Virus record (IMG/VR): IMGVR_UViG_3300009160_000004
Location: 1-60,251 of that record
Length of the DNA: 60,251 nt
Direction: 5' to 3' (one strand)
From: a virus
Taxonomy: Duplodnaviria > Caudoviricetes
The translations under genes were made by a program, and so were the position numbers. Positions 16,422 through 30,644 of this stretch are shown piece by piece. Position 1 is the stretch's first letter. Every line of letters begins with the position of its first letter. The notes under the pieces are model-generated. The model made no database searches, had not been told where the DNA came from, and was given only the letters and a program-made list of their open reading frames with translations.

Positions 16422-16783
16422 TGACAGATATCGAAGTGATCCAGTGGTTCTTTGACTTGGAGAAGGTGTCGCAGGGTTTCAACTGGCCGGTCAATGCTGC
16501 CGGTCTTGCTCATACCAAGCGATGCCTGGATTCCTTGGTTGCTGGCAAGGCTCACGCTGCCGATGTGCTTGCGGCATACAGGGAGTTCGCCGGCACCATC
16601 GGGCCGTCAGGCATGAACCTTCTCCTGCAATCCGATGATGCGTTTCCAGAGGTCAATCATTCCGGCAAGCCCACGCCACCCGCTCCCGGTGCGGTGGTGT
16701 TGTACGTTGCGCCGGACGGCAAGTGTGTGGTGGCCACGCCGACCAACGTGTGGGGGGCGGCACCTGAGTTGTCTGTTCGATAA
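16415..16783 (+). CDS. Hypothetical protein
   Basis: SD and tiling. Confidence 0.65.
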   Translation: MVVTDIEVIQWFFDLEKVSQGFNWPVNAAGLAHTKRCLDSLVAGKAHAADVLAAYREFAGTIGPSGMNLLLQSDDAFPEVNHSGKPTPPAPGAVVLYVAPDGKCVVATPTNVWGAAPELSVR

Positions 16784-16792
16784 GGAGTCTAC

Positions 16793-16903
16793 ATGTACAA
16801 GGATGTACTGATTCTCATGCATGTCATGGCGACCTGCATCCTCTTGCTGCTTGCGGTGCAGCTAAAGGAGATCCTGATCCGTATACTATTGGAGGTCCGA
16901 TGA
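16793..16903 (+). CDS. Small membrane peptide, 36 aa
   Basis: TAAGGAG SD; MYKDVLILMHVMATCILLLLAVQL. Confidence 0.6.
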   Translation: MYKDVLILMHVMATCILLLLAVQLKEILIRILLEVR

Positions 16904-16974
16904 GCGAGATGGCTGACTTCTGTGTTGGTTCCCTGGTTGTCCTTGCCTTCCTCTGGTGGAGTTCCCTTGCATGA
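16900..16974 (+). CDS. Small membrane peptide, 24 aa
   Basis: GGAGG SD; ATGA overlaps at both ends; hydrophobic. Confidence 0.55.
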   Translation: MSEMADFCVGSLVVLAFLWWSSLA

Positions 16975-17729
16975 AACTGTATCTCTATGGCCGTGTCTCA
17001 ACGGATGATCAGCAGACATCGGCCGATGCTCAGTCGGTCAGGCTGCGTGAGTTCGCTGAGAAGTCTGGCCTGGAGATGGGCGGGGTGTTCGTGGATGAGG
17101 ATGTCTCCGGCAAGATCCCCCTCCAAGAGCGACCCAAGGGGAAGGAACTGTGGAATCTCATCCAGCCTGGGGATGCCATCGCATTCACCAAGGTAGATCG
17201 TTGCTTCAGATCCTTGGTAGATGCTGCCTCAACCTTGGAGAAGTGGAAGCTCATGGGCATCCGGGTCCATATCCTGGACTTAGGGATCGATGTGAACACG
17301 CCGGCCGGAGAGTTGTTCTTCTCCCAACTGGCAGCGTTCGCACAGTTTGAGCGGGCCATGATCGGACTGCGTGTGCGTGAGGCCCAGGCCCACAAACGCC
17401 GCACCGGCAAGCCATACAACAAGACCCGCCCTATCGGATGGCGCAGGCAGGGCGACTGCTATGTGCCCCTGCATTCCGAGCGGAAGCTGGCAGAGAGAGT
17501 CATCGCTTACCGCGACCGTGGCGAGTCGCTGCCCCGGATTGCTTTGCGTCTGTGCAAGGAGAACATCCGGAGCGCTGACGGCTCTTGGCTTCGCCCCTCC
17601 GAAGTACGGCGGCTGGAGATCGCGGGGCGAGCCGGATATCCAAGGATTGCGAGACGGTCCTTGCAAGCCTCTGTGCGGACATGCTCGCCACCCGGATCGG
17701 GATCTGATGCTCTTCCGACAGAGACCTGA
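16971..17729 (+). CDS. Serine recombinase (resolvase catalytic domain plus short DNA-binding extension)
   Basis: YGRVST..Q, SG...ERP, KVDRCFRS and FAQFER motifs. Confidence 0.92.
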   Translation: MKLYLYGRVSTDDQQTSADAQSVRLREFAEKSGLEMGGVFVDEDVSGKIPLQERPKGKELWNLIQPGDAIAFTKVDRCFRSLVDAASTLEKWKLMGIRVHILDLGIDVNTPAGELFFSQLAAFAQFERAMIGLRVREAQAHKRRTGKPYNKTRPIGWRRQGDCYVPLHSERKLAERVIAYRDRGESLPRIALRLCKENIRSADGSWLRPSEVRRLEIAGRAGYPRIARRSLQASVRTCSPPGSGSDALPTET

Positions 17730-18144
17730 GTGTCATGCCGTGCATAAAGCGGTTGAACGCCATCTCCTGATCGTCCTCTGGCAACTCTTCAATCGCCAGC
17801 CGCAGATGATCTAGCTCGTCGTATTCCGGCATGCGATCAGCAGCGTCAGCCAAGGAGATGCGGTTCTCTCTTGGCGTGCGGGTCGCCTTCTTAATGAACT
17901 TCAGCATCCCATTGAGGATGGCCCGAGCGAAGTAGGCTTTCGGATACGGGAGTCTCTTGGGATCGTACGTCCGTGCGGCCTTCGACAAGGCGAGGAACCC
18001 CTCCCCCTCCAGGTCGTCAACGTACAGAGAACGCTGCCATTGCGGGCGGTTCTGGACGAAGTACCTCGCCAACATGTGGACGAGGTCCAGGTAATCAGTG
18101 ACTAGGCGCTGCTTTGTCTTTGAGAGTTTTGATCTCTTGCTCAT
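17500..18144 (-). CDS. Sigma-70 family sigma factor (FliA/WhiG-like)
   Basis: Region 2 DDLEGEGFLALSKAARTYDP; region 4 LPEDDQ...GMTLRSLS. Confidence 0.85.
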   Translation of the reverse strand: MSKRSKLSKTKQRLVTDYLDLVHMLARYFVQNRPQWQRSLYVDDLEGEGFLALSKAARTYDPKRLPYPKAYFARAILNGMLKFIKKATRTPRENRISLADAADRMPEYDELDHLRLAIEELPEDDQEMAFNRFMHGMTLRSLSEEHQIPIRVASMSAQRLARTVSQSLDIRLAPRSPAAVLRRGEAKSRQRSGCSPCTDAKQSGAATRHGRGKR

Positions 18145-18322
18145 GTACTTCCAGCCGAGCCTCATGGTCGGCTAGTGTTTCTTTCAGTTCTTCAAACATC
18201 TCAGGCATGCGTTGCACCGTGTCGGCAATCACCGCAACTTTTGCGTGGATTGAAAACGCCCACGGAATCACGGCCGCACAAGCCGAGATCACAAGCATCC
18301 AGAATTCTGCGTCAACGCTCAT
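18095..18322 (-). CDS. Membrane protein with coiled coil (holin-like)
   Basis: N-terminal TM segment, then HEARLEVHEQEIKTL. Confidence 0.6.
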   Translation of the reverse strand: MSVDAEFWMLVISACAAVIPWAFSIHAKVAVIADTVQRMPEMFEELKETLADHEARLEVHEQEIKTLKDKAAPSH

Positions 18323-18528
18323 GTCATCCCCATTAAAACCATGCCCGCGTACGGATGAAGCTGGCCTTCCAGCACATGCAGTCTGATGATCTCCATCGCA
18401 TCGGGGAATTCGTCATCGGGGAACTGATAAATGTGTGTCTCGCCGTTGTATTTCACGATGAGCCGAGTGAACTGGACGCCTCGCTCTTCAGCCTGCGAAT
18501 CTCGCCAGCGTTTCTTTTGGATATCCAT
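18319..18528 (-). CDS. Hypothetical protein
   Basis: MDIQKKRW...; ATGA overlap. Confidence 0.65.
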   Translation of the reverse strand: MDIQKKRWRDSQAEERGVQFTRLIVKYNGETHIYQFPDDEFPDAMEIIRLHVLEGQLHPYAGMVLMGMT

Positions 18529-18767
18529 TTGATAATCCAGTGAGAGATCAGGTTCGCGAGCAGGGGGAGAACGAGGAGCAGGAACACCGACCCGCACTCT
18601 GGGTTGCGCTTGCGGTATTCTGTGCGGATGCGAGAGCGATACTCCGTAAGCGATGCCGTCTCATCCCAGACGACGATAGCCACCAGAGCCACATCCGTGG
18701 CGCGGCTACTGAGTCTTCCCGTCTTGGTGTATCGGACTGCTTCATCTGCTACTTCTTGGGCGCGCAC
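18453..18767 (-). CDS. Membrane protein
   Basis: TM FLLLVLPLLANLISHWII. Confidence 0.65.
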   Translation of the reverse strand: MRAQEVADEAVRYTKTGRLSSRATDVALVAIVVWDETASLTEYRSRIRTEYRKRNPECGSVFLLLVLPLLANLISHWIIKWISKRNAGEIRRLKSEASSSLGSS

Positions 18768-18997
18768 TTGCCGTCCTCACATCCTGCCTGCTTGCACTTG
18801 CATGTGTCTGGACATGGACACTTCGTCTTGTGTCCATCGCCATGCGTGATGACGCCGTTCTTGCACTGGCCGCAACATTCCTTCACCACCACCGGCGCCT
18901 TCTGTGTGGCGATCACGTACGCTGCCTCCGCCGCGACCGGCCCGGTGTAGTCGGGTGTGCCCCAGAACGACGCGAGGATAAGGAATAACTTACTCAT
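18749..18997 (-). CDS. Exported or membrane-anchored Cys-rich protein
   Basis: Hydrophobic N-terminus; CCGQC...CPCPDTCKC. Confidence 0.7.
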   Translation of the reverse strand: MSKLFLILASFWGTPDYTGPVAAEAAYVIATQKAPVVVKECCGQCKNGVITHGDGHKTKCPCPDTCKCKQAGCEDGKCAPKK

Positions 18998-19940
18998 TGC
19001 GGAGGAGTCCTATGGCACCGAAGTCGGGCAGCTTCTGGGGTGGGTAGCCCTGCACATCCGAATACAGCCAGCAATCCTCTGAGTCGATGCACACCTGGAA
19101 GTCTTCGTCCTTCACCACGATCATGCCTGGAACCCAAGGCGGATAGTCTGCCGGCCATTCCTTGGGGCGCTGGTTCCACTGCCCCCACTCCTGCATGAGG
19201 AACCAGACGCGGAAGGGCCAGAACGATTTCGTATCGTCATAGCCACCGATTGCCATGTCGTGGTTCCAGCCTGGGGAGATGCGGTTGTAGTAGTGCTGGC
19301 TGTTCGGTTCGGCTGCCCACGCTGCGTACTGACCCGAGTGTGCGGCGTACCCGTTGATCATCGCGTCCATGAGGTCTGCCTGCGACCGGACTACGGTGAT
19401 GGTGCCGACGTTGTGTTTTTTGCATTCCTCTTTGATCTCACTTGGAATTTGGGACGAGCCCCAGCGAATTCCGAGTTCGCAATACTTCGACAGGTCGTAG
19501 GCTCCTACCTTCTCCCTTGGCAGGAACCCGTAATCGCGTTCGTACCTGGACGCCACGGCCGGGCTCATGCCCTGACCACCATGGCCACGCGCCCCGTACG
19601 TTGGCTCCAATGCGCCCTTCTTGTAGAAGTCCAGCGGATGTCCGTTCGCAAGAATCGCTGCTGCCCTCGTCATGTCCCTCGCATTGCGAGAACCATGGGC
19701 TACGCAATCTCCCGTGATTTGCCGCTCGCTGAATGCAGTCGGGTCTAGGGTTGTGAGGTAACCGAAGAGCAACGCACGCTTCCCCTCACCCATGCCACGG
19801 ATGTTGGGCTCATTGAAGTACTGGTACTTCTGCGTCTCCAGGAACTCAATGCGGCCACGCGGGTCAGCGAAGTACCCGGGCAGCCCGCCATTCTGGTAGG
19901 CGTTGAGGATTTCGTACGGCGTCTCAAAGTCTTCAGCCAC
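18990..19940 (-). CDS. Papain-like (C1) cysteine peptidase
   Basis: Q-ITGD-C-VAHG, H-DMAIGGYDD and MQEWG (NSWG equivalent). Confidence 0.8.
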   Translation of the reverse strand: MAEDFETPYEILNAYQNGGLPGYFADPRGRIEFLETQKYQYFNEPNIRGMGEGKRALLFGYLTTLDPTAFSERQITGDCVAHGSRNARDMTRAAAILANGHPLDFYKKGALEPTYGARGHGGQGMSPAVASRYERDYGFLPREKVGAYDLSKYCELGIRWGSSQIPSEIKEECKKHNVGTITVVRSQADLMDAMINGYAAHSGQYAAWAAEPNSQHYYNRISPGWNHDMAIGGYDDTKSFWPFRVWFLMQEWGQWNQRPKEWPADYPPWVPGMIVVKDEDFQVCIDSEDCWLYSDVQGYPPQKLPDFGAIGLLRNE

Positions 19941-20352
19941 CAGCTTGCCTCGCGATCTCTAGGCAAGCCTTCTCTAAGTTCTTCCACACTGGCTGGCCCT
20001 GCGACTCTGCCGTGAGGGAGAGGTTGTCCAGCGAGTTCGACTCGGCAAGGACTTCCTCCACTGCCTTGTCCAATCCCTGGTACTTACCAACGAGAGAGGA
20101 TCCGCCCACGGCCAGTCGGAGGGTGTTGCTGTGGACAACACGCCAGATCGAAGTGGACGCGATCTGTTTGCCCTGGTCCCTAGCGGTCACATCGGCAAGC
20201 GCGCGGTAGATGCCGGCGACCTTGGCCCGGTCTGAGGAGGAGGCAGACGCAAGGGCCGTTGTGACGGGACCAGTCTCTACGACCGGCCGTGGGGGTAAGA
20301 ACGTATACGCGACGAACAACGCAGCAAAAACAAGCGGGAGGTGTTTCATCAT
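19933..20352 (-). CDS. Membrane-anchored helical protein
   Basis: N-terminal TM/signal LPLVFAALFVAYTFL. Confidence 0.7.
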   Translation of the reverse strand: MMKHLPLVFAALFVAYTFLPPRPVVETGPVTTALASASSSDRAKVAGIYRALADVTARDQGKQIASTSIWRVVHSNTLRLAVGGSSLVGKYQGLDKAVEEVLAESNSLDNLSLTAESQGQPVWKNLEKACLEIARQAGG

Positions 20353-20555
20353 TCCACCCCCAGCAGAACACGCAGGAGAGCATTGCACGCCTGCGTAACC
20401 TTCGGATCGGCGTACGACTCCCGGATCCGGACTACCTGTTCAATGGGGTCCAGGAGTTGCGGCTTTGCGGGGATGATTGCTTTGAATGATGGGAGGTAAT
20501 ACCACGCCGTCACCCCAAGGAATGCGACGATGGCAAGGATCTGATAGGTGGTCAC
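20349..20555 (-). CDS. Small membrane protein (holin candidate)
   Basis: TM ILAIVAFLGVTAWYYL; coupled. Confidence 0.65.
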   Translation of the reverse strand: MTTYQILAIVAFLGVTAWYYLPSFKAIIPAKPQLLDPIEQVVRIRESYADPKVTQACNALLRVLLGVE

Positions 20556-21481
20556 AGGATTTTGGCTCCGGGGATCCAGATGGTCACGCCATCCTTCGAT
20601 GAACGGACTTCGTAGTTCAGTAGTTTGTGGGGATCCAAGAGACCCCAGCCGTAGATGTCGTCGCGCCCCTGCTCACCAACATCGCGGCAGGAGTAGGACA
20701 AGGCGGAGGTGGCAGAGTGGCAGTCCACCTTCATGCCTTCTCTCTTACAGGAAGAGACATACAAGGCGAGGACGCCAGCGACGAACGGCGCGGCCATGCT
20801 CGTCCCCGAGATCGTGGCGTATCCGTCAGCCAGCCAAGTGGATGTGATGTCCTGGCCCGGCGCAGCGACTGCGACTTCCTTCCCACGGGAGGAGAACTCA
20901 CAGGCGTTGCCATTCCTGTCCACCGCACCCACCGCAATGGTCTCTTGGAAAGCGGCAGGGTAATCCACTGCGCCACCGTCGTTGCCAGCAGCGCAGACGA
21001 CCACGATCCCATTGGAGTGCGCCGCTTTGATCGCGGCGTGCAACTGGGCATCCGGCCGGGACGAGCCAAGGGACATGCAGATTATGTCCACCTTGGCTTC
21101 CGTGGCGTACGTCACCGCCTGGGCCACGGACTCATTCGATCCCATGCCAGAGTGGCCAAGGACTTTCAGTGAGAGAAGCGCACAGCCTGGAGCGATCCCC
21201 TTTGCTGGGCCTTTCCTTGCACCAATGATCCCGGCGACATGCGTTCCATGTCCCACGGTATCGTGCTGGTCCGAATCACTGGAGAAGTTGCGGTGGTCCT
21301 TCACCTCCAGCGCGTAGTGCGGGGCTATTCCAGTGTCTACGACTGCGACCGTGACGCCGTCTCCTTGGGTGCCCTTCCATAGGGAAGGAATGCCGTAGGC
21401 GTGAAGGCCCCAGTCTACCCCTTCGGAGAGCGGCGTCGGATTGAATGTAACTCTGTACGGAGGGAGGTGGACGTAGCTCAC
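20552..21481 (-). CDS. Subtilisin (S8) serine protease, intracellular type
   Basis: VDTG, HGTHVAG, AAGN, GTSMAAP; N-terminal LPPY; no signal peptide. Confidence 0.95.
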   Translation of the reverse strand: MSYVHLPPYRVTFNPTPLSEGVDWGLHAYGIPSLWKGTQGDGVTVAVVDTGIAPHYALEVKDHRNFSSDSDQHDTVGHGTHVAGIIGARKGPAKGIAPGCALLSLKVLGHSGMGSNESVAQAVTYATEAKVDIICMSLGSSRPDAQLHAAIKAAHSNGIVVVCAAGNDGGAVDYPAAFQETIAVGAVDRNGNACEFSSRGKEVAVAAPGQDITSTWLADGYATISGTSMAAPFVAGVLALYVSSCKREGMKVDCHSATSALSYSCRDVGEQGRDDIYGWGLLDPHKLLNYEVRSSKDGVTIWIPGAKIL

Positions 21482-21816
21482 TTCCGCACAAGGGCTTCCA
21501 AGATGGCGATGATGATCGGCAGGATCGTGTCGATCAACAACTTGTAGTCAATGCCCATGGCCTGGACTTCCGCACCACAAGCAAGAACTGAAACGTCATG
21601 GTTTTCGTAGGTGTCCAGGGCGTCAACGTCCCAGGTCAGGAGCTTGGGCACCACGGCCTCCGCTTCCAGGATGGGGATCAACAGCCGTGCGATCTTGTCC
21701 ACGATCTCCCACTGGTCGGAGTACTTGGCGTCCTTACGGAAACCCTTGGAGACATCCACAATCTGGAGCAACACGTTCTTATGCTTCAGCAACCACTGCA
21801 ACACTTTGAGATTCAT
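21478..21816 (-). CDS. Tail-anchored membrane protein
   Basis: C-terminal ILPIIIAILEALV. Confidence 0.7.
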   Translation of the reverse strand: MNLKVLQWLLKHKNVLLQIVDVSKGFRKDAKYSDQWEIVDKIARLLIPILEAEAVVPKLLTWDVDALDTYENHDVSVLACGAEVQAMGIDYKLLIDTILPIIIAILEALVRK

Positions 21817-22172
21817 TTCCGCTCCTGGTGGTTAAGGCACGCCAATGCCACCACGGCATGGCCGGCGATATCAATCAACGTCTCTTTAAGTAAGTGTCCG
21901 TCGTGCTGGGCTTCTCCCCGCAGACGCCGGCACTTTTCCCCGATCCTGGCAAGCTGATAACGCCAGGGTTCGATGCCGTCCCGAGCCACCCCAAGGGCGT
22001 TGGAAAGTGGGCCATCGTCGGGGTTTCCGTAGTACCCGCTCTTCCGGAGCATGAGCCGGTGGATCGTGTCGGTGACTTCCTTGTAGGGATCGTCACCACT
22101 CCATTCCCCGGCTGGCTTTGACAATCCTCCCGTACTCTGCCCAGAAGGTTTGGTGGTGGTCCGTGTCTTCAT
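21813..22172 (-). CDS. DUF1599 / nucleotide-modification-associated domain protein
   Basis: K..YYG...RIGEK..RL...ETLIDIA pattern. Confidence 0.65.
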   Translation of the reverse strand: MKTRTTTKPSGQSTGGLSKPAGEWSGDDPYKEVTDTIHRLMLRKSGYYGNPDDGPLSNALGVARDGIEPWRYQLARIGEKCRRLRGEAQHDGHLLKETLIDIAGHAVVALACLNHQERK

Positions 22173-22449
22173 CGTTGTCCTCCGTGTCTAGGAGATGGGC
22201 ACACCGCGCGTGGGCCCACTCCTCACAAAACGTATCGATCATTTCTCCGTGGTTCAGGGTGTCCACAACCCCGATGCAACCACGTTCGCAGTCATCATCC
22301 ATGGTGAAATACCCGAGCATTCCGCCATCATCCGTCACCATCTGGTCCCGTTTCCGCATGTACACCCTCACCGGAAACAGGACTGGAAAGCGATCCTCCG
22401 CCCAGCGTTTGAGCTTTCGCAGCAATTTCCTTCGCCAATCCTGGGACAT
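22093..22449 (-). CDS. SprT-like zinc metallopeptidase variant
   Basis: EEWAH in place of HExxH, plus downstream HHQTFW. Confidence 0.5.
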   Translation of the reverse strand: MSQDWRRKLLRKLKRWAEDRFPVLFPVRVYMRKRDQMVTDDGGMLGYFTMDDDCERGCIGVVDTLNHGEMIDTFCEEWAHARCAHLLDTEDNDEDTDHHQTFWAEYGRIVKASRGMEW

Positions 22450-22735
22450 CGTCCAACCTCACTATGGCCAGCCATGGCTTGCCGTTGCGGCGGGTCAGGA
22501 CGAGTGGGATTTTCCCACCACAGTCCCGCACCGCCTGATCCATCCACACGTAGGGGTTGCCGCGTTCCACACGCTTCACCTCTAAATGGATGTCCCCGCA
22601 ATCGTGAACGATGTCCGGAGAATCCGTTCCGCCCGCAAATTGCTGGCCCCTGCGAGCCTGACAGCCGGTGACCCGAGCCCATTCCTGGGCCCCTTCCCTC
22701 TCACCGCGACAGCCCTTGGCCCGTCCGTTGGTCAT
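22328..22735 (-). CDS. Holliday junction resolvase (Hjc-like PD-(D/E)xK)
   Basis: KG.RGERE, PDI and EVKR motifs. Confidence 0.85.
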   Translation of the reverse strand: MTNGRAKGCRGEREGAQEWARVTGCQARRGQQFAGGTDSPDIVHDCGDIHLEVKRVERGNPYVWMDQAVRDCGGKIPLVLTRRNGKPWLAIVRLDDVPGLAKEIAAKAQTLGGGSLSSPVSGEGVHAETGPDGDG

Positions 22736-22977
22736 GCTTGGATCCTCGCGAGCCGGCCATGGTCATCCCGGGAGGTGACCAGCCTTAGGGCGGGGAACTG
22801 TTCATGGATTAGCTGGACAACCTCAGTCTCGCGGCGCTTGTCCAGAACCTTCTCGTTCTTAGCGACCCACAGGCCGACCTCGCCCGAGAACTTAAAGTCC
22901 CGGGCGTCACCCAAGGTGTCCCAGTAACAGTCGATGCGGTGGACCATGGTCCGGACGTTGCAGCCAGCTTCCATCAC
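22732..22977 (-). CDS. Hypothetical protein
   Basis: ATGA-type overlaps on both sides. Confidence 0.6.
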   Translation of the reverse strand: MMEAGCNVRTMVHRIDCYWDTLGDARDFKFSGEVGLWVAKNEKVLDKRRETEVVQLIHEQFPALRLVTSRDDHGRLARIQA

Positions 22978-23339
22978 TCAGGCTCCACGGAACGAAGGAG
23001 ACTCTCTAGCAATTCGGCGTAGTGGTTCGGGCGTTCGGAGGCGAAGCCGTTCTCCAGGAGGAACCCGGTCAATGTTTCCCCGGAGGAAATATCTTGGAGA
23101 TCGCCAAGCAGCCGGCCGTACGGATCCCGGAACCAGTCGGAGGTGAGGAGCCGGAACCGACCGCCCTCTTGGTGGACCTCGCACCAGTCAACGATTGCCT
23201 GCTTGGCCTCGTCATTGCAGTACACACCCTCCAGCACCATGTACTGGGTGATCATGGACTGCACCTGTGGTACTGCGGAGCGAATCATCACTGTGTCTGG
23301 CCTAGTAACTCTGACCACTATGGCTTCCGTGCCGACCAT
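22974..23339 (-). CDS. Thermonuclease (SNase)-like protein, degenerate
   Basis: VVRVTRPDT, DPYGRLLG, LLENGFA. Confidence 0.7.
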   Translation of the reverse strand: MVGTEAIVVRVTRPDTVMIRSAVPQVQSMITQYMVLEGVYCNDEAKQAIVDWCEVHQEGGRFRLLTSDWFRDPYGRLLGDLQDISSGETLTGFLLENGFASERPNHYAELLESLLRSVEPE

Positions 23340-23716
23340 CCCTGGACGTTCCTTAGTCTTTCTTCTTTGTAAGCATCTGGCAGTTCTTTCGGTTCGTACC
23401 CGAGATGCTGCTTGTGTTTAAGTGACGCGAGGAATGCCGGATCGTAATTGTCGGGATCGCATTCCTGCTTCACGCCCAGCAGTATACCTTTGTCTAGGTC
23501 GTGAAGTCCAGTCAAAAAAGATCCCGAATGTAAAACCGTGTGGCAGTTCTGACAGAGTCTGACATATTGCCGGATGTCGTGCTTGCGTCCTGCTCCGCCG
23601 ACTAGGTGGTGAACCTCCAGTCGCCTGCGGCCGTCACTTTCTGGCCACCAGCAGACTCCGCAGCACCTGTGTTCCTGAACCCACTCTATGAGTTCAGCTT
23701 GCTCTTGCTTGTTCAC
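23318..23716 (-). CDS. HNH endonuclease-like protein
   Basis: CGVC...EVHHL...LCQNCH..LH. Confidence 0.75.
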   Translation of the reverse strand: MNKQEQAELIEWVQEHRCCGVCWWPESDGRRRLEVHHLVGGAGRKHDIRQYVRLCQNCHTVLHSGSFLTGLHDLDKGILLGVKQECDPDNYDPAFLASLKHKQHLGYEPKELPDAYKEERLRNVQGWSARKP

Positions 23717-24149
23717 GTTCTATGTCCCGGCGCAGGTATTCGACGCAAAGCTGGAGGCGTGCCAGCGCAGCCTCAGAGTTGCCAGCGCAGGCCAAGTTGC
23801 ACGCATGGCAAATCACGCCACGGACATGGCCGAGTTCGTGGCAATGGTCAAATTTTTGGGAGTGGGCAGATTCAAACGGCGCACCACATGATTGACACAC
23901 GGGCACTGCTGCAAACAAACCGACTTCTTCTGTTGTCAATCCGTACCTGCGCCGTCGCGTTGAAATCGACTTGTGCAAACTGTAGTGTGGGTTACGCGCA
24001 CGGTACTCGCGATCTTTCCGAAGTTTGCATTCCTTGCAATAGTGTTCTAAACCATCTTTTTTACTGGCGTTCTTGTGAAACGCACTGAGCGGCAATTCCC
24101 GGCCGCACCCAATCTTTCCGCCGCAGACCTTTGTAGCTTCAGCGTACAT
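23694..24149 (-). CDS. Endonuclease VII-type nuclease with N-terminal zinc finger
   Basis: YGLT, CQSC, DHCH..GHVRGVICHACN. Confidence 0.85.
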   Translation of the reverse strand: MYAEATKVCGGKIGCGRELPLSAFHKNASKKDGLEHYCKECKLRKDREYRARNPHYSLHKSISTRRRRYGLTTEEVGLFAAVPVCQSCGAPFESAHSQKFDHCHELGHVRGVICHACNLACAGNSEAALARLQLCVEYLRRDIEREQARAS

Positions 24150-24180
24150 CCTCCATGCCTTACTACCCGTCGTGCGGCAC

Positions 24181-24209
24181 AGTGTACGGCGGTACACACC
24201 GCAAGTAAA
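24181..24209 (-). promoter_or_regulatory. Sigma70-type promoter
   Basis: TTTACT-N17-TACACT upstream of the EndoVII gene. Confidence 0.55.
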
Positions 24210-24214
24210 TCACA

Positions 24215-24537
24215 CAGTTAAACGGTGGTGGGAGGTAGGCAGGCGACTCCGGCCGAAGCCGGAGACGGCTGCGTTAAACGGCGGAGCCGAGTAAGGCAGA
24301 CGGGTAGTGCATAGTTGTTGACGGGGTCCGCTACCTTTCATCCTCTGCCCCGTGCGGCGGGTCCGAGACCTTGCATCCAGGGCTGGAGTCGTCAGCGTGC
24401 CCTGCTGTCCGCAAAACCAATGGTTGACCTGTATCCCAGGCCGGGCCATTGGTGGTGCCAATCACTCGCCTACCCCATGGGGCGGCTTCGGCTGATGGCG
24501 TTTGGCCGGAACTCCGGCGCCGTTCGACAATCGGGGT
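24215..24537 (-). ncRNA. Candidate structured non-coding RNA
   Basis: Long-range closing stem, C(UUCG)G hairpin and three more stems in a ~330-nt gap. Confidence 0.45.
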
Positions 24538-25158
24538 CTACTTAAACTCGCGGGTGAACATCGTTCTCCAGCCTGGAATGCGGAGTTTGCATCGCTCCTC
24601 GTTCCACCGGCAGAACTCTGTCAGATCCCGTGAGTTGTATTGGGGGAGCGCCTTCGCCATAGTCCAGAGATGCCACGCATAGGTGGCCATCTCGGCGCAG
24701 TAGCGGTCGCTTTCCTGGCGTGTTGCCAGCTTCAGTTCGCCCCGGGTAATTGACCCGGAGGTGTACGCTGCCCACTCATCCAGAAGCATGAGCGGCTGGA
24801 CAGCCCAGTACTCCGTCGCGCCCTGCTTGCGGTAGGTTTCGTAGATCGATCCCCGTTCTTCCTTCGGGATCGCGGCAAAGACATCGGCCGTCAGGAGCGG
24901 AGGCGTGGGAATAAAGACCCGTATACCATTTCCGATATACACCCCGTGGAACCCGGGCTTCCCACGGCACAGGAAATGATTGCCCTCATGGGCGTAGGTG
25001 ACGAGGTCGGCGTCCTTGGCGTCCGTGTTTACCGGAAGCCGTGCCGCGATGTCGGTCAGCGTCCATGTGAATGCGGCCGGCGGAGCAGACACAACCGGGG
25101 CGTACTCCACCTCGGCCGCACCAGCCGCAAGCTCAAAGATCAGCATCCATGCCAACAT
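24538..25158 (-). CDS. Exported gluzincin-like metallopeptidase
   Basis: Signal-like N-terminus; HEGNH plus downstream DEWAAY. Confidence 0.55.
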   Translation of the reverse strand: MLAWMLIFELAAGAAEVEYAPVVSAPPAAFTWTLTDIAARLPVNTDAKDADLVTYAHEGNHFLCRGKPGFHGVYIGNGIRVFIPTPPLLTADVFAAIPKEERGSIYETYRKQGATEYWAVQPLMLLDEWAAYTSGSITRGELKLATRQESDRYCAEMATYAWHLWTMAKALPQYNSRDLTEFCRWNEERCKLRIPGWRTMFTREFK

Positions 25159-25200
25159 CGTCGCATCCTAGCAAGTCAGGGTGGCGTTTGTCCCACCATC

Positions 25201-25422
25201 TCACATGTCCCTACCAGTAAATGGCTTCGGATGAGGAATGTCGTACATCTCGTTGCCCATCACCCGTATTTCGGCTGAATCTACGTGTATCACGTTCCCG
25301 GTATCGAACAGGTGAATCACCCATACCGAGTTCACGCTGGGACCGTAGTCAATCAGGAACAGGGCATGGCCCTCCCCGAGTGGCGTCGTGACCCAGATAT
25401 GGGGATTCAACTGGAGGATCAT
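25201..25422 (-). CDS. Conserved phage hypothetical protein
   Basis: QLNP.IWVTTPLGEGHA..LIDYG motif. Confidence 0.8.
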   Translation of the reverse strand: MILQLNPHIWVTTPLGEGHALFLIDYGPSVNSVWVIHLFDTGNVIHVDSAEIRVMGNEMYDIPHPKPFTGRDM

Positions 25423-25562
25423 TTGGCAAGTATCCAGAGCCCAACGTTGCTGAAGGAATAGCCCGCATATACGACCCCCATAGCGTTATTCCCGTGAGCA
25501 AACTGCTCAATGGACACGCACAGGTAAATGACTCCGGTCACAATGATCAGCGTTCCGCTCAT
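25419..25562 (-). CDS. Small two-TM membrane protein, 47 aa
   Basis: MSGTLIIVTGVIYL...GYSFSNVGLWIL. Confidence 0.7.
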   Translation of the reverse strand: MSGTLIIVTGVIYLCVSIEQFAHGNNAMGVVYAGYSFSNVGLWILAK

Positions 25563-25638
25563 GGTTCCCCCATGGTTAGGTTGTAAAGCAACATGGCACA
25601 GGCAAATACCATGGCAATGAACCACTGCATCGGGTCTA

Positions 25639-25926
25639 TCACGGCCACCTCGGATAGATGAGAACACCGCCAGTCATGGATCCGGTGTGGATCTCAATAG
25701 CCGATGCACGCGGGAATTCCTTGGCAAGCTGATCGGCCGTATCGATCAGGCTCTGGCTGTCGATCTGCGCCTTGTGGGCGTGGACCCAGTTGTTGATATC
25801 GGCGTAGTCCGACTCCTCGGACGGGCCCTGCTTATCGCGGTCCATCCACACCCGGATGTTCCGGCCAAGCGTCCGGAACTTCAGAATGTTTTCGTAGACC
25901 TTAGTCTTTCCCGTGAACCACATCAT
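25639..25926 (-). CDS. Hypothetical protein
   Basis: AGGAGG SD. Confidence 0.7.
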   Translation of the reverse strand: MMWFTGKTKVYENILKFRTLGRNIRVWMDRDKQGPSEESDYADINNWVHAHKAQIDSQSLIDTADQLAKEFPRASAIEIHTGSMTGGVLIYPRWP

Positions 25927-26065
25927 CGTCGCCTCCTTGCAGTTGAGCCTCCAGTTCCTTCACACGCTCACGCAGCGTGAGAATCTCGTTCCCGGCGGCT
26001 TCCGCCACCGTGTCAATACCCTTGCCGCTGTAGGCAAGGTCCAACAGTTTCTGTGCGATGTCCAT
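25901..26065 (-). CDS. Small coiled-coil protein, 54 aa
   Basis: MDIAQKL...EAAGNEILTLRERVKELE, read manually. Confidence 0.65.
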   Translation of the reverse strand: MDIAQKLLDLAYSGKGIDTVAEAAGNEILTLRERVKELEAQLQGGDDDVVHGKD

Positions 26066-26071
26066 CACGCT

Positions 26072-26689
26072 TCACCCCATGTGCTTTCTAGTTTTCGCCT
26101 TAGTCTTTCCATCGCGGCCTCCAGCATCCGGATGCGTTTTCGCAATGTATCGTTCTCTCTCCTCAACCTCTCCTCCTCCTCGGACGAAGAGACTTGTGTC
26201 TCCATCTACGAACTCCAGGAACTCTTGTGGGTACAGGTACTTTTCCAATTCATCTGCGTGGCGAAGATGTTCCTTGGGGGCGACGAGCATCCCCATGTCA
26301 TGGCCACGGGTATTGTCTTTGACAGTCTTCTCTTCCCATGAATCATCCCGGTCTAGCGGCGTGATCCACACCCACTTGCCTGTCACTGAAGACAGGAACA
26401 CATAGGCAAAGGGATGGATGAACTCCCTGCCCAGGCCGCGCGTGTCATCAACAAACACGGTCGGGTACGGGAAATCTTCCGGAGACGTAAACTTCAGACT
26501 CCGTTCTTTAATCTCCACGGACAGGAGGACTGCTGCATCAGGAGTGCCACAGTGGTCAGCGACCTTGCTGTGGTTCGTGAGCAGGAGCTTCTTGCCGTGA
26601 GCCGCCGACCGGCCGGAGACGCGCTGGGCATCCACCCAGGCGCGCTCCGCACGGTGACCGGAATTAAGAGCCGCTCGGAATTGCCGCAT
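26072..26689 (-). CDS. PD-(D/E)xK nuclease-like protein
   Basis: GHRAE, TPD, VEIK, FPYPTVFVD. Confidence 0.65.
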   Translation of the reverse strand: MRQFRAALNSGHRAERAWVDAQRVSGRSAAHGKKLLLTNHSKVADHCGTPDAAVLLSVEIKERSLKFTSPEDFPYPTVFVDDTRGLGREFIHPFAYVFLSSVTGKWVWITPLDRDDSWEEKTVKDNTRGHDMGMLVAPKEHLRHADELEKYLYPQEFLEFVDGDTSLFVRGGGEVEERERYIAKTHPDAGGRDGKTKAKTRKHMG

Positions 26690-27191
26690 AGTTCCAACCA
26701 GTCCATTGGTATGATCGAATGTCAACCCGCTCTGGCGAGACGTTCGCTAGGCGGTCCTCACGCTGCCTGATCTCCTTGGCCATCGCGAGAATCTCTTCGG
26801 GACTTGGGTCACCGGGCTGGTAACCGTCGTCCACAAACTCCATCCAGTCGGGGATAAACTCTTCCTTGCGAAGAGCGTCGGCTGTTCGCCGGACGGAGCG
26901 GGCCCAGTTGAGGGGCTCGCCAAACCAATCCGCGATGTCCTCGTCGGTAACGTCAGGCACCCGCATGGCGACCAGAGCCAGACGCTCCCGAGACGGCACC
27001 TTCCCGCAGTGCCGCAGGATTCGGAGGACGCCAACAGTTGCGCTCTTTCCCAAGCCCAGGCTCTTGCCCACCATCATCGGCGGCTCGCGGTTTACTATCA
27101 CCCGGTGATACAACTGCCCGGCGAAAAGGAGCGGACAGTAAACTGCAAAGTCTTCGCCAAAAATTGGGGCGTACATGTCCCTCTTTCTCAT
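26664..27191 (-). CDS. Putative HTH DNA-binding protein
   Basis: AGGAGG SD; VGKSLGL and EDIADWFG helices; DPSPEEI motif. Confidence 0.6.
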   Translation of the reverse strand: MRKRDMYAPIFGEDFAVYCPLLFAGQLYHRVIVNREPPMMVGKSLGLGKSATVGVLRILRHCGKVPSRERLALVAMRVPDVTDEDIADWFGEPLNWARSVRRTADALRKEEFIPDWMEFVDDGYQPGDPSPEEILAMAKEIRQREDRLANVSPERVDIRSYQWTGWNYAAIPSGS

Positions 27192-27282
27192 TCTTCTCCT
27201 CCTTGGTAAACGTCTCTGGGAAAACATGCGGGATGTCAAACACCTCCCGCACCACAGAATCAACTAAGTCTTGCTCGCTCAC
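26953..27282 (-). CDS. Possible overlapping hypothetical protein
   Basis: GGAGAG SD and protein-like N-terminus MSEQDLVDSVVREVF, but heavy overlap with the next gene. Confidence 0.3.
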   Translation of the reverse strand: MSEQDLVDSVVREVFDIPHVFPETFTKEEKNEKEGHVRPNFWRRLCSLLSAPFRRAVVSPGDSKPRAADDGGQEPGLGKERNCWRPPNPAALREGAVSGASGSGRHAGA

Positions 27283-28291
27283 GGCGTTCTCTCTCCTTAC
27301 GAAACAGGTTCTTTACCCAGCCTTCCCGCAGGTCACGGCAGGCCCAGTGGATGTAGCCATTCGTTAGCTCCGACATCTTCATGCCGGCGTACTTGCCCTT
27401 CAGAGGGTTGAAGTAAGTGCCGACGCACCGCGAACCGGCGCCAATGTCAAACTCTCGGCGGCGAATACTTCCAGACGCCTGCCCCCTAGTGGCGGCGCGG
27501 CGGGCTTCGATCTCCATCGCCAACTTCCGCTTGGCCTCTTCCTCCGCCCGCAGGGCAGCAAGCTCCGCCTCCGTCAACGGGGACTTGGCCTCGGCGGCAC
27601 GGCGCTTCACTTCCTTCACAACCTCTGGCCCTGCCTGGACGAACATGTCCACGGCCGTGACGAGGCGGTGATCCAGGCTGGCATCGGTGCAGTCAACAAT
27701 TTTGAAGTGCGGCTTGGAACTCTCGGCTATGCGTTGCCGGCGGAGGTCGGCGGTTGAGCCTTGGAAATCGACTACTCCCGGCAAGGGACGAGTAGCGCGG
27801 CCAACGCATTGGAGCCAGAACGACCGTGACCGCGTCGGCCTGCCCAGGATCAACGTGGCTGTGGGTGGATAGTCAAAGCCCACGGCGACCACCTGACAGT
27901 TGACGAGTACTGGCACCTCGCGTGACTTAAACCGGCGGAGCGCCTCCCTGCGTTCATCCTCGTCCTGCTTGCCATGCACATAAACTGACGGAATTCCGTA
28001 GTTATTGTTGAGGTAATGACACACCCCAGCAGCCGCAGCCACGCCAGCGGTGAACACCACAGTCTGGCCTTCCATCTCTTCCTTGGTGATCAGGCAGATT
28101 CGCTGAAGGTTTGCTTCTTTGACCATCTCATCAGCCAGTGCAGATTGTTTGAAGTCGTCGCCTACGATTGCTATTCCGCTGAGATCCAGGGAGGCAACCT
28201 TGGAGATGCGACAGACGGGAGGGACGGACCATCCGTTGTCAATTGCCCATCGGAGGTCGTAGTTACACAAGGACTCGTCGTAGAACTGCAC
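27260..28291 (-). CDS. SF2 helicase, C-terminal half (motifs IV-VI)
   Basis: TVVF, VHG, LVNCQVVAVGFDYP, QCVGRATR. Confidence 0.88.
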   Translation of the reverse strand: MQFYDESLCNYDLRWAIDNGWSVPPVCRISKVASLDLSGIAIVGDDFKQSALADEMVKEANLQRICLITKEEMEGQTVVFTAGVAAAAGVCHYLNNNYGIPSVYVHGKQDEDERREALRRFKSREVPVLVNCQVVAVGFDYPPTATLILGRPTRSRSFWLQCVGRATRPLPGVVDFQGSTADLRRQRIAESSKPHFKIVDCTDASLDHRLVTAVDMFVQAGPEVVKEVKRRAAEAKSPLTEAELAALRAEEEAKRKLAMEIEARRAATRGQASGSIRRREFDIGAGSRCVGTYFNPLKGKYAGMKMSELTNGYIHWACRDLREGWVKNLFRKERERRERARLS

Positions 28292-28776
28292 AGTAAACCC
28301 CTCCCATCCATGCGAAATGGAGTCGCCGTAAACCCAGCCACCATCGCCCCGTCGTGTTGAAAGTAACGCAACATCTCAACCACCGGCTCACTGCACATCA
28401 GGTGAGCCTCGTCCACAATCACCAACTGAAAATCACGGAACCGTTTGTATCGCGGCTCCCCGCCCCGCCGGCTGAGTAACGTCTGCTTCGATGCGACAAT
28501 CACCTTGCTGGGGTAATCCTCTTCAGCGTGGAAGTTAGCCATCTCCACATCAGGATCAGACTCTGTGATGTCCCGCACCTTCTCAATCGCCTGCCAGACA
28601 AGCTCACGCATCGGGCAGATGATCAACGTCCGACCCAGAATCCGTGCAGCCAATGTGACAAAGATCACTGTCTTGCCGGCACCCGTGAACAGGCCGTTGA
28701 GCGTGGAGGTAACACCACGATCCATGGCCTGTAGGTTGGCGGTCACGATCTCTTCTTGGTAGTCGCGTAGTTCCAT
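28171..28776 (-). CDS. SF2 helicase, N-terminal half (Q motif, I-III)
   Basis: LRDYQ, TGAGKT, DEAH, TATP; coding frame changes near 28295. Confidence 0.9.
   Translation of the reverse strand: MELRDYQEEIVTANLQAMDRGVTSTLNGLFTGAGKTVIFVTLAARILGRTLIICPMRELVWQAIEKVRDITESDPDVEMANFHAEEDYPSKVIVASKQTLLSRRGGEPRYKRFRDFQLVIVDEAHLMCSEPVVEMLRYFQHDGAMVAGFTATPFRMDGRGLLCSSTTSPCVTTTSDGQLTTDGPSLPSVASPRLPPWISAE
28294..28300 (-). other. Candidate -1 frameshift slippery heptamer G GGT TTA
   Basis: In-phase X XXY YYZ; a -1 slip joins the two helicase halves. Confidence 0.5.
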
Positions 28777-28825
28777 AAGAAAAAACCCGGGGGCGAGGAG
28801 GGACGGGGGTTGCCTCGCCCCCGGG
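28777..28825 (-). terminator. Rho-independent terminator after ssb
   Basis: 13-bp CCCGGGGGCGAGG stem plus TTTTTTCTT. Confidence 0.88.
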
Positions 28826-28831
28826 GAGCCA

Positions 28832-29161
28832 TCAGAAGGAGGCGAATTCCTCCTGGGGCTCTGAGCGCTTCCCTGCGCCCAGTAGCGTGAGCGAGCGAAC
28901 GGCCAAAACCATCTTTGACTTCTTCTGTCCGTCCTTCTCCCAGGACTGCTGATCCAGTTCGCCAGTCACGCAGACCTGACAGCCCTTAATCAGGTACTCC
29001 AGAACGCCACCGATGCGCCAGTGATCGCAGTCCAAGAACATGACCTTGTCCTTGCGGCCATTGACCGCGATGGAGTAACGACCCACCTCGGCCTCACCGA
29101 CCATCTTGGACTCAGCATCCTTAGTGATCCGCCCAGTAAACGTGCAGACATTCGTATCCAT
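28832..29161 (-). CDS. ssb: Single-stranded DNA-binding protein
   Basis: GRITKDAE, KG.QV.V.G.L...WEKDGQK, acidic tail ending in Phe. Confidence 0.92.
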   Translation of the reverse strand: MDTNVCTFTGRITKDAESKMVGEAEVGRYSIAVNGRKDKVMFLDCDHWRIGGVLEYLIKGCQVCVTGELDQQSWEKDGQKKSKMVLAVRSLTLLGAGKRSEPQEEFASF

Positions 29162-29163
29162 GG

Positions 29164-29799
29164 TTACGCCTCAACTTTCTGAAAGGTGTCATCAAACTTC
29201 TTCTGGATCCGTTCCAGAACCGCCTTCGGGCATGCCTTCTCCAGAACCCTCTGCTTCACCAACGAGACGACCTTCTTGGCCTCGTCCACGCTCTTGGCTT
29301 CCGCAAGTGCCTTGGTCGCCTTGCTCTCAATCTCCATCCCCTTGGTGACAACATCCGCCTCCGACGAGCGGGCCGTGTGCTGCACGGAGTTGCCGTCGTC
29401 GTCAGCCTCGCCGGAGAAACCTCCAGTGAGCGCCATGAGGAGCGTCCGCTTGCCATATGTCATCGCCGCACCGAAGCCCTGCATGTCGCCCTTCGGATTG
29501 ACAAGCGGAGCTACTCCAGAGATGTACTGCCCGCTGCTATGTCGGAGCGTGCCGACCAGCACCCACTGCGAGCCTGCGAGACCAGGACGAAAATCGGGAA
29601 GCGCAATCCCGTTCTTCGTCAGCGGGCCACGCAGGGACTCGCAGCATTGAGCAAACGAACTGAACTTGCTCCTGAAGTGCGGGTTCGCACTATCCAGAGC
29701 AACGGCCTGATACTCCGATTGAGCCTTGGCCAAAGCCTTCGTCAGTTCAGCCGTCTCCGGCGAACTACTTGGCCCAAGAATGAACTGGTTATCAATCAT
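29164..29799 (-). CDS. erf: ERF-family single-strand annealing protein
   Basis: NPHFRSK, QGFGAAMTYGKR, DDDGN. Confidence 0.9.
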   Translation of the reverse strand: MIDNQFILGPSSSPETAELTKALAKAQSEYQAVALDSANPHFRSKFSSFAQCCESLRGPLTKNGIALPDFRPGLAGSQWVLVGTLRHSSGQYISGVAPLVNPKGDMQGFGAAMTYGKRTLLMALTGGFSGEADDDGNSVQHTARSSEADVVTKGMEIESKATKALAEAKSVDEAKKVVSLVKQRVLEKACPKAVLERIQKKFDDTFQKVEA

Positions 29800-30644
29800 A
29801 GAAGCACCTCCTCCTTCTTCTGTGCCCACGGCGGAATCACTAACTCCGTGATCTCGCCAAACGTCGCGGGCGTGTAGATACCCGTCTCCCGTCGCAACCG
29901 AACTTCCTCCATGACTCGTTCCATCCGCCGGCCGGCTTCCTCAACCACTTCCTGTGGGAGGTAGAAGACTTGGCAGTCGAACGGCGGGACGCTGTGGACA
30001 AATACGAACGGCATCCGGAAGTGATCCATGCCCATCGCCATCGCGGCACGGACATACAACCACTCCTGTTCCGCATAGCCGTAGTCAAAGACGCTGCGGT
30101 ACAGCGCGTCCCACGGTGCGGAGGTGGACTTCAAATCCCACCAGTAGTCCTCTGCACAACCGTCCGGCCGCACCTTCACGCGGTGGCCGTTGAGGTCAAA
30201 GAAGACAGAGACCTGAGTCTCAACCGTCTCCTTCACGCACTTGCGTGCTGCGGGGTTCGCAAGCAGGGACTCCGCCATCGTCCGGAGTTTGAATGCGTAC
30301 TCCTCGTTGCACGGGATGCGACCGCTCGCGATGCACTCCGCCTCAAACTCCTTGTAAGCCTTGGTGCCACGCCGGCCGTCAACGCCCAGCACATCAACCG
30401 GGGCAATGGCCAGGAGCTTGTCCATCTCCCTGCCGTCGCAAATCTCCATGACGAGCGTGTCGAAGTCGGAGCCCAGGCTGGTGGCGCTGTTCCCCTCAAA
30501 GATTCTGTGGCCAAGGTCCAGCCACCTTTGAGCGAATCCACCACCCTTCAGTACCGCGACAAAAAAAGACCGCGAATCGAAATCGTTCTGTGCGAAGTAG
30601 TCGGCGTTCGCCATGCCGACAACCTTCCTTGGCAACGTGTCCAT
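29796..30644 (-). CDS. RecE-like exonuclease (PD-(D/E)xK, DUF3799-like)
   Basis: ETQVSVF, KVRPD, DLKST, YGYAEQ; adjacent to erf. Confidence 0.85.
   Translation of the reverse strand: MDTLPRKVVGMANADYFAQNDFDSRSFFVAVLKGGGFAQRWLDLGHRIFEGNSATSLGSDFDTLVMEICDGREMDKLLAIAPVDVLGVDGRRGTKAYKEFEAECIASGRIPCNEEYAFKLRTMAESLLANPAARKCVKETVETQVSVFFDLNGHRVKVRPDGCAEDYWWDLKSTSAPWDALYRSVFDYGYAEQEWLYVRAAMAMGMDHFRMPFVFVHSVPPFDCQVFYLPQEVVEEAGRRMERVMEEVRLRRETGIYTPATFGEITELVIPPWAQKKEEVLL

Follow-up and report, generated by a model that had tools for sequence, protein, structure and literature searches.

A candidate phage lysis module centred on a papain-like cysteine peptidase in a genome without a recognizable endolysin

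The freshwater tailed-phage genome IMGVR_UViG_3300009160_000004 (Duplodnaviria; Caudoviricetes), whose full length of 60,251 bases is the window analysed here, carries nine tightly packed genes on its minus strand at 18095–21816, among them those for a papain-like cysteine peptidase (PAP), a subtilase (S8) and several small membrane proteins. On balance, we favour the view that this region is a phage lysis module with the triad c4–PAP–c6 as its core. Its scheme is most likely a variant of the holin–endolysin–spanin arrangement, with a papain-type enzyme in the endolysin's place. A first-pass annotation had read the nine genes as a protease-based lysis cassette; the cassette-like behaviour of the genes and the choice of PAP as the best candidate for the lytic enzyme stood up to analysis, whereas the role given to the subtilase and the assignment of envelope protein as the target were not supported. 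The genes are listed below, with membrane features taken from hydropathy and families from Pfam and PHROGs.

c1, 21478–21816, minus strand: helical protein of 112 amino acids (aa) with a C-terminal hydrophobic helix, possibly a tail anchor; specific to the group of 60-kb genomes that includes the window (the 60-kb group).
S8, 20552–21481, minus strand: subtilase of 309 aa, of the intracellular-subtilisin type.
c3, 20349–20555, minus strand: 68 aa with one N-terminal transmembrane (TM) helix; may be a holin partner or a regulator of lysis.
c4, 19933–20352, minus strand: N-terminal TM segment, short linker and helical bundle of ~100 aa; the open reading frame (ORF) is open to 20388.
PAP, 18990–19940, minus strand: 316 aa, papain-family (C1-like) cysteine peptidase by its modelled fold; proposed lytic enzyme.
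c6, 18749–18997, minus strand: 82 aa with a short hydrophobic N-terminal stretch and a Cys knot, 8 Cys lying in the C-terminal half.
c7, 18453–18767, minus strand: 104 aa with one TM segment at residues 61–79 and a charged C-terminal end; may be a component of a holin or an antiholin.
c8, 18319–18528, minus strand: small soluble protein of ~69 aa counted from Met24, with no TM segment; the ORF is open to 18597.
c9, 18095–18322, minus strand: 75 aa with an N-terminal TM segment and a charged coiled-coil tail; best holin candidate.
Sigma-70-family factor gene, 17500–18165, minus strand: Pfam Sigma70_r2, E = 2.6e-8; a neighbour outside the nine genes.

PAP was assigned to the papain family through its modelled fold and its motifs. 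It matched no Pfam family even at E ≤ 1, did not reach the gathering score of PF00112, and had no match among PHROGs or PDB sequences; the label "papain-like" in the first-pass annotation is thus borne out by fold and motifs and not by any family hidden Markov model (HMM). An AlphaFold2 model of moderate quality (predicted local distance difference test, pLDDT, 75; predicted TM-score, pTM, 0.81) places the start of the catalytic helix at residue 76. When this model was compared with the PDB using Foldseek, seven matches were obtained at E ≤ 0.001, all of them C1 peptidases (xylellain, cathepsins B and L, silicatein). Xylellain (3ois, E = 9.8e-6) ranked first, followed by procathepsins B and L and papain, with TM-scores of ~0.4–0.57. 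In BFVD, 14 matches at E ≤ 0.001 were led by Peptidase_C1 proteins of phages and giant viruses and included phage proteins of C1-like fold named "Peptidoglycan binding-like" and "N acetylmuramidase"; mycobacteriophage Lysin A appeared only at E = 0.06–0.3. Neighbours in the ESM-Atlas were 93–96% viral, and in one neighbour cluster 12% of the members carry PF00112. Judged from the model, PAP is a phage-specific papain-family (C1-like) cysteine peptidase.

The sequence conservation of PAP is in line with such a fold. Across 26 PAP sequences from both of its clades, Q74, C79, H227 and W252 are invariant, and N250, S251 and G253 are at least 90% conserved. PAP thus has the Gln–Cys–His set and the NSWG motif of C1 peptidases such as xylellain, cathepsins B and L, and Cwp84 of Clostridioides difficile (4ci7), whose folds its model matches at Foldseek E-values of 9.8e-6 to 4.4e-3. 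Like the pro-forms of C1 peptidases, which are several of its best matches, it has ~75 N-terminal residues before the catalytic helix. It differs from them in sharing only 9–16% identity over the listed PDB matches (11–15% for the top five), in being restricted to viruses and always paired with c6, and in having a conserved C-terminal extension that ends in G-x-I-G-L-L. The window copy further reads Q-E-W-G (Q250-E251) at the NSWG motif, with Gln replacing Asn. The family is large, with 534 homologous clusters, of which the best 120 are mostly 55–60% identical and ~316 aa long; none of these is informatively named.

PAP sequences fall into two clades with different N-termini. In the clade of the window, none of the 82 sequences, the window copy included, has an N-terminal TM segment or signal-anchor. 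In a divergent sister clade, such a segment, rich in Ala, Gly and Leu, is present in 32 of 33 distinct sequences, the exception being truncated, and the catalytic domain of these proteins therefore acts beyond the inner membrane. This split resembles that between soluble and signal-anchor-release (SAR) endolysins, of which P1 Lyz and R of phage 21 are examples. PAP differs from SAR endolysins in its papain-type catalytic domain and in the leaderless form of the window copy, and release of the sister-clade proteins from the membrane would follow only by analogy.

The PAP gene is also a hotspot for homing elements. All 17 long forms of PAP (687–802 aa; P0121–P0137) carry an Intein_splicing domain, most of them together with LAGLIDADG or Hom_end_hint, and a further relative, P0104, is likewise intein-bearing. 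At loci L051, L054 and L058 the tblastn match restarts at PAP residue 78, adjoining the catalytic Cys79, and in 9 of 82 loci (L031, L032, L035, L043–L046, L048 and L050) c4 and PAP are separated by an endonuclease VII homologue. Fusions of PAP with wall-binding domains were considered and rejected: among 8000 candidates scored, all 17 matches of 682–2000 aa proved to be intein-bearing PAPs.

No known endolysin family was found beside PAP. None of the window ORFs scanned (59 with Pfam, 39 with PHROGs) belonged to one. Six-frame searches with nine Pfam families were performed on the window and 36 other PAP-bearing viral records (G000–G036); these 37 records, 27 of them at least 90% complete, comprise the 60-kb group and unrelated backbones of up to 185 kb. 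SLT, Phage_lysozyme, Amidase_2, Amidase_3, M23, M15_4, CHAP, GH25 and NlpC/P60 each scored above cut-off in 0 of 37 records. That families can be detected in these records by such searches is shown by S8, which a search of this kind recovered in 26 of the 37. Six-frame searches of the window for PF00959 and PF01510 returned nothing, and searches for GH108 and GH19 were uninformative, as their controls gave no signal, and were not counted towards the absence. The absence of lysozyme, amidase, M15, M23 and CHAP genes noted at first pass is thereby confirmed at the HMM level and, examined alongside cassette synteny across relatives, holds in all 37 PAP-bearing records. At this same level, the 37 phages are therefore also devoid of the usual virion-borne wall hydrolases for entry. 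In the open literature, subscription journals being outside the scope of our search, we found no paper on planctomycete-phage lysis genes or on C1 peptidases as endolysins.

The arrangement of the genes around PAP is conserved well beyond the window. Searching 82 related viral loci, most of which are cut at ±10 kb or by contig ends, with the cassette proteins (tblastn) revealed the same gene order, with matches to S8 in 53 loci, c4 in 53, c9 in 52, c1 in 51, c3 in 46, c6 in 46, c8 in 37 and c7 in 36; the sigma-factor gene is syntenic in 52. With the order kept in ~50 relatives, the arrangement is more than chance. In the 60-kb group the full order is HNH-u121-u81-PDDEXK-u118-u119-c1-S8-c3-c4-PAP-c6-c7-c8-c9-sigma, followed by a convergent recombinase gene. 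The nine genes are not, as first proposed, a discrete unit: in the window the packed gene string runs from the HNH gene (23716) to the sigma-factor gene, and what the lineages have in common is only c4–PAP–c6. Distant PAP relatives (36–44% identity) keep only c4 and c6 nearby, as detected with HMMs of the cassette proteins, and small TM, signal-peptide or lipoprotein genes surround PAP in these lineages. The c6 motif, used as the sole query, retrieved 78 new viral loci; 76 of these have PAP immediately upstream of c6, and the remaining two are truncated at the locus edge. In all, 336 viral loci with PAP and 246 with c6 were found.

The triad c4–PAP–c6 is thus a core kept across unrelated phage backbones. 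In planctomycete prophages it directly follows a fused prohead-protease/capsid gene; P2-type phages keep their lysis genes after the capsid gene. A different lineage has the triad placed between a glycosyltransferase gene, a sigma-like gene and a gene for an RCC1-repeat, fibre-like giant protein, near a ribonucleotide reductase gene. The cultured-phage collection contained no match to the cassette (blastn) or to PAP (tblastn). RNA-library contigs from two runs of one sample, derived from a relative 85–95% alike, include one of 6035 nt covering 17511–19044 and 19891–23434 and a second of 6520 nt covering 17650–19044 and 19891–23858; these records are contigs, DNA may occur in libraries of this kind, contig depth cannot rank the genes, and neither a single transcript nor timing follows from them.

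Both constant neighbours of PAP have features of envelope proteins. The Cys knot of c6, CxxC..HGDGH.T.CP..C, has C42, C45, G48, D54, G55, T58 and C60 invariant in 25 sequences. Relatives of c6 in planctomycete prophages and other lineages have clear lipoboxes (LVGGC, LLAGC, LIAGC, LSGC, LTGC). In the same alignment, the window c6 and 13 c6 proteins of its close group have no Cys in the N-terminal hydrophobic stretch. The description of c6 as an exported Cys-rich protein holds for its Cys content and, as regards export, for the lipoprotein relatives, export being a prediction for the window copy. For c4, the first-pass description as an anchored helical protein was accurate: an AlphaFold2 model (pLDDT 92.4, pTM 0.78) consists of a TM helix and a compact helical bundle. 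A fold search of the PDB with this model returned nothing at E ≤ 0.001 (best E = 2.1), and an alignment of 28 c4 sequences has no invariant column. The idea that c4 might be a cryptic SAR-type lysozyme was rejected, as no residue is invariant and the confident model has neither a lysozyme-like nor any other PDB neighbour. We conclude that c4 is a partner protein anchored in the inner membrane and not an enzyme; by analogy, its topology resembles that of an i-spanin.

Relatives of c4 in other lineages have an N-terminal TM segment, Pro-rich linkers and extra Ig-like inserts. In those at L067, L070, L071 and L073, an extra domain of ~100 aa, likely Ig-like, and long Pro-rich linkers (e.g. P-V-P repeats) sit between the signal/TM segment and the conserved helical domain. 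Structure prediction of a c4–c6 complex lent the pairing weak support, with a score of 0.36 against 0.01 for the best of three controls, runs agreeing in at least 82% of contacts and a partner pLDDT of at least 52. Of 80 solved complexes, 58 attain the mark used for such predictions, as do 2 of 110 mismatched pairs; at scores of 0.60 or below, only 7 of the 80 solved complexes attain it, along with both of the passing mismatches.

The small membrane proteins of the cassette form the only membrane-protein cluster of the genome: of the 91 ORFs listed, seven small ones have a predicted TM helix, and five of these fall within it. All nine ORFs are present as first annotated, overlapping or abutting one another, and the membrane features described for them were borne out by hydropathy; in c1 the hydropathy maximum is 2.14, at residues 92–110. 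Alignment of relatives corrected the start of c4 to Met13 (20352). For c8 the start is probably Met24 (18528), with which an overlap with c7 persists; the two ORFs share 18453–18597 in different frames, amounting to 145 bases for the longest ORFs and ~76 from the likely c8 start, and both proteins are conserved at the protein level in relatives. Neither c1 nor c3 belongs to a Pfam or PHROG family, c7 matched no family at E ≤ 0.001, and a c1 profile of 14 sequences found no PDB-sequence match.

Among these proteins, c9 is the best holin candidate. Its TM segment at about residues 7–25, followed by a charged helical tail, fits the layout of small holins. The window copy matched phrog_1296, "holin", with E = 1.8e-4, and 14 of the 95 small proteins scanned (15 of them c9-family members) did so at E ≤ 0.001, the best at E = 3.1e-6; PHROGs have no curated cut-off, and the label "holin" is an annotation. 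Pfam matches of c9 to DUF7365 and XhlA were below cut-off. The c9 gene overlaps the start of the sigma-factor gene.

The first-pass annotation had correctly recognized S8 as a subtilisin-like enzyme (Pfam Peptidase_S8, PF00082, E = 6.2e-51; phrog_3677, "protease", E = 3.5e-77). Its motifs D-x-G, GHGTH, AAGNDG and SGTSMAAP are at least 95% conserved in 50 homologues, and the Asp/His/Ser triad and the Asn are present. Among PDB sequences the best match was "Intracellular serine protease" 7y6m (E = 3.8e-46), whose alignment begins at residue 4 of S8. Intracellular proteases in general align with S8 from residues 2–8, and secreted subtilisins only from residue 20. Like the intracellular subtilisins of Bacillus (7y6m, 7xr8, 2x8j, 2wv7), S8 has no signal peptide and no I9 or other classical prodomain. 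Its short N-terminal extension contains the sequence HLPPY, which is invariant in the 50 homologues and aligns with the LIPY region of those enzymes, which we take to be their defining N-terminal motif. Unlike them, S8 is encoded by a phage, within a membrane-protein cassette. From its sequence, S8 looks like an intracellular-subtilisin-like zymogen. It is also lineage-specific: S8 was found in all 25 records of the 60-kb group, the window included, and in 1 of the 12 others. Neither property lends support to the earlier proposal that the subtilase takes part in lysis; S8 would have been added in the 60-kb lineage only, where it may activate PAP, be a second lytic protease, or act outside lysis.

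Several lines of evidence point to a planctomycete host, as the first-pass annotation had supposed. Eight of 13 species-representative genome matches are in assemblies titled Pirellulaceae, Pirellulales, Planctomycetaceae or Thermoguttaceae, and the contigs within which two of these planctomycete matches lie measure 0.92 and 5.5 Mb. In a sample from the phylum of the Thermoguttaceae genome, 5 of 400 further genomes carried PAP, several times deep inside large contigs, as against 0 of 400 in the phylum of a metagenome-assembled genome (MAG) titled Rubrivivax. Whole-phage contigs of the window lineage itself are binned in five MAGs of five lineages, only one of which is Pirellulaceae. Taken together, a planctomycete host is probable for the window phage. 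Phages predicted to infect Planctomycetes are mentioned in PMC6802176.

The genome in which the cassette lies is complete, being circularly closed or terminally redundant, as indicated by an exact 123-bp direct terminal repeat at 1–123 and 60129–60251; the window is the whole IMG/VR record, which CheckV rates as 100% complete. No tRNA genes are present, and about two thirds of the ORFs scanned have no family match in Pfam or PHROGs. The structural and packaging genes recognized include those for a P22-like portal, a large terminase and a major head protein, accompanied by fibronectin type III (fn3)-rich and tail-like giant proteins; a recombination and replication block encodes an exonuclease-like protein, ERF, SSB, two helicase halves, endonuclease VII, an HNH protein and a PD-(D/E)xK protein. 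A scan of 16500–32000 for promoters and terminators gave counts equal to the shuffled expectation and was uninformative.

Other features of the genome deserve mention. Two distinct recombinases are encoded, a serine recombinase at 16956–17729 (Resolvase domain, E = 3e-33) and a tyrosine-integrase-like gene at 30922–31743, the latter with a weak match (E = 4.3e-5) under the Pfam cut-off. The sigma-factor gene, on the minus strand, and the serine recombinase gene, on the plus strand, are convergent, and their 3′ ends overlap by 230 bases (17500–17729); both C-terminal tails look low in complexity, and one or both stops may exceed the functional end. The helicase is spread over two ORFs, a ResIII/DEAD half at 28171–28776 and a Helicase_C half at 27260–28291, which overlap by 121 bases in different frames; the gene may be split or frameshifted, or a start may have been overcalled. 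The 1338-aa protein of 44808–48824 has seven fn3 repeats (Pfam fn3, E = 8.7e-77), and 50822–52546 encodes a second fn3 protein that is also lectin-like; both are probably surface-binding virion proteins. An HNH endonuclease with helix-turn-helix or sigma-70 region-4-like motifs is encoded at 55456–56127, between the terminase and portal genes. Upstream of the cassette, u118 (22093–22449, 118 aa) is kept in 49 of 82 loci and has 20 residues that never vary; among these, E76, E77, H80, H98 and H99 (EEW-x-H...HH) give it the appearance of a metal-binding enzyme. It has no Pfam or PHROG family, and its best PDB-sequence match has E = 1.1. The possibility that u118 and c1 are hidden enzymes was rejected, as profile searches against PDB sequences yielded nothing at E < 1.

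These observations can be combined into a tentative scheme for the proposed lysis module. PAP would occupy the endolysin's place and break the load-bearing layer of the envelope. In the window phage, leaderless PAP would accumulate in the cytoplasm until a holin, for which c9 is the best candidate, opens the inner membrane and lets it reach the periplasm; in the sister clade, PAP would bring its own N-terminal signal-anchor, as SAR endolysins do. The proteins c3, c7 and c1 would be further membrane components or regulators. As envelope partners, c4 and c6 could either reach across to the outer membrane as a spanin-like bridge, or hold PAP in position or regulate it.

A lambda-type lysis cassette consists of a holin, an endolysin, an i-spanin and an o-spanin. 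The proposed module resembles it in having small membrane proteins around one leaderless enzyme, in the match of c9 to PHROG 1296, in the N-terminal TM anchor of c4, which is predicted to face the periplasm, and in the lipoprotein nature of c6 in relatives. It differs in that the enzyme is a C1-type cysteine peptidase and not a glycosidase, an amidase, or an M15/M23 or CHAP/NlpC-P60 enzyme, in that the two spanin-like genes flank that of the enzyme, and in that the cassette follows replication genes.

What PAP would cut is a separate question. The first-pass annotation had proposed envelope protein rather than peptidoglycan stem peptides, a choice that the analysis did not support; neighbours of PAP include the C1-like proteins named "Peptidoglycan binding-like" and "N acetylmuramidase". 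Papain-like cores can act on the wall: the NlpC/P60 C40 domain of LysA from phage D29 cuts peptidoglycan stem peptides, as described in 10.1101/2025.01.22.634383. PAP differs from such clan-CA endolysin domains (C40, CHAP C51) in that its neighbours are C1 peptidases and that NlpC/P60 and CHAP HMMs scored in 0 of 37 records. Because of these neighbours, and because clan-CA domains cut stem peptides, PAP may, by analogy, be a new peptidoglycan endopeptidase. It may then itself be the "cryptic endolysin" whose discovery the first-pass annotation had named as refuting its reading.

A protein target is nevertheless reasonable because, in PMC10632474, most peptidoglycan-synthesis genes of Planctopirus limnophila are described as not essential, and the essential genes almost confined to Planctomycetes include one for a Cys-rich YTV-domain protein. 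The same text suggests that the YTV-domain protein is involved in regulating cell-wall rigidity, and it describes genetic tools for P. limnophila. A bolder version of the lysis reading, which we put forward tentatively and consider rather doubtful, is that phages of Planctomycetota gave up muralytic endolysins, and that PAP and c6 dismantle a disulfide-rich protein layer of the YTV type that carries the strength of the wall; the 60-kb lineage would have added an intracellular-type subtilase as activator or second lytic protease.

Several points weigh against lysis as the function of the region, which we infer from sequence, models and gene context. The cassette lies downstream of the recombination and replication genes and upstream of the sigma-factor gene, away from the structural genes, where lysis genes are not usually found. 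For a lysis enzyme, the conservation of PAP is unusually high, with mostly 55–60% identity among the best 120 of its 534 clusters, and PAP hosts inteins; both traits are met more often in genes for replication and packaging. The naming of c9 as a holin comes from one PHROG family by its annotation label, and none of 54 c9-homologous clusters is named holin, the names of the homologues being uninformative. Neither c4 and c6 nor their relatives among the 95 small proteins match a spanin family in Pfam or PHROGs, c4 is modelled as a helical bundle and not a coiled coil, and the window c6 has no lipobox and only a ~10-residue hydrophobic N-terminus; in these respects, too, the module departs from the lambda type. 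S8 appears from its sequence to resemble cytoplasmic proteases. Finally, a very divergent endolysin may be present among the many ORFs without a family, two proteins having been folded.

The same location would suit an envelope-remodelling or host-takeover module, whose membrane proteins and exported or anchored peptidase would alter the host surface in the course of infection or lysogeny, for instance by receptor destruction, superinfection exclusion or release of the cell from its holdfast or stalk, with lysis left to something unrecognized, a reading that we consider unlikely. The cassette does share its packed string with the recombination and replication genes and the sigma factor, the serine recombinase and the tyrosine-integrase-like gene make lysogenic-conversion functions plausible, and with most ORFs unannotated an unrecognized endolysin is possible. 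Set against this are the retention of the triad in many unrelated backbones and its position next to the capsid gene in prophages, together with the holin PHROG match of c9; moreover, the genome has no other membrane-protein cluster, and the endolysin families are absent from all 37 PAP-bearing records.

It is improbable that S8, PAP or both serve to mature virion proteins, or to cleave a membrane regulator of the adjacent sigma factor, in which case c9 would be anti-sigma-like. The intracellular type of S8 with its conserved N-terminal plug would suit such a role, family scans recognized no prohead protease in the genome, and c9 overlaps the sigma-factor gene, the pair being syntenic in 52 of 82 loci. 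Capsids assemble in the cytoplasm, however, whereas the signal-anchored PAP clade and the lipoprotein relatives of c6 place PAP outside it; the triad-bearing planctomycete prophages already encode a fused prohead protease–capsid protein; S8 is missing from 11 of the 12 other PAP-bearing records; and c9 has no anti-sigma domain recognizable with Pfam. That S8 and PAP degrade host defence proteins as a counter-defence or bulk host protein to release nutrients, with the small membrane proteins as unrelated morons, is very improbable, for although neither protease of the window phage has a signal peptide and the 93–96% viral PAP clusters suggest a virus-specific function, the strict pairing of PAP with c6, seen in 76 of 78 loci, and the clade with signal-anchors point to the envelope as the site of action, and the conserved order of all nine genes would not be expected of unrelated morons.

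If the region is a lysis module, as we favour, its significance would extend beyond a single genome. To our knowledge, every well-studied tailed phage exits its host by cutting peptidoglycan, and the PAP/c6 family spans hundreds of environmental phage genomes. For such genomes, "no endolysin found" should not be taken as a sign of incompleteness. The lysis toolbox would gain a new enzyme class and a new obligate partner protein. Should the protein layer prove to be the target, peptidoglycan cleavage would be dispensable for the release of these phages, as peptidoglycan synthesis is for the host. The phages would then offer an independent probe of the long-disputed planctomycete envelope, in which the roles of protein and peptidoglycan are unsettled, and the use of a papain-type protease instead of a muralytic enzyme would mean that the lytic enzyme is chosen by the load-bearing part of the host wall.

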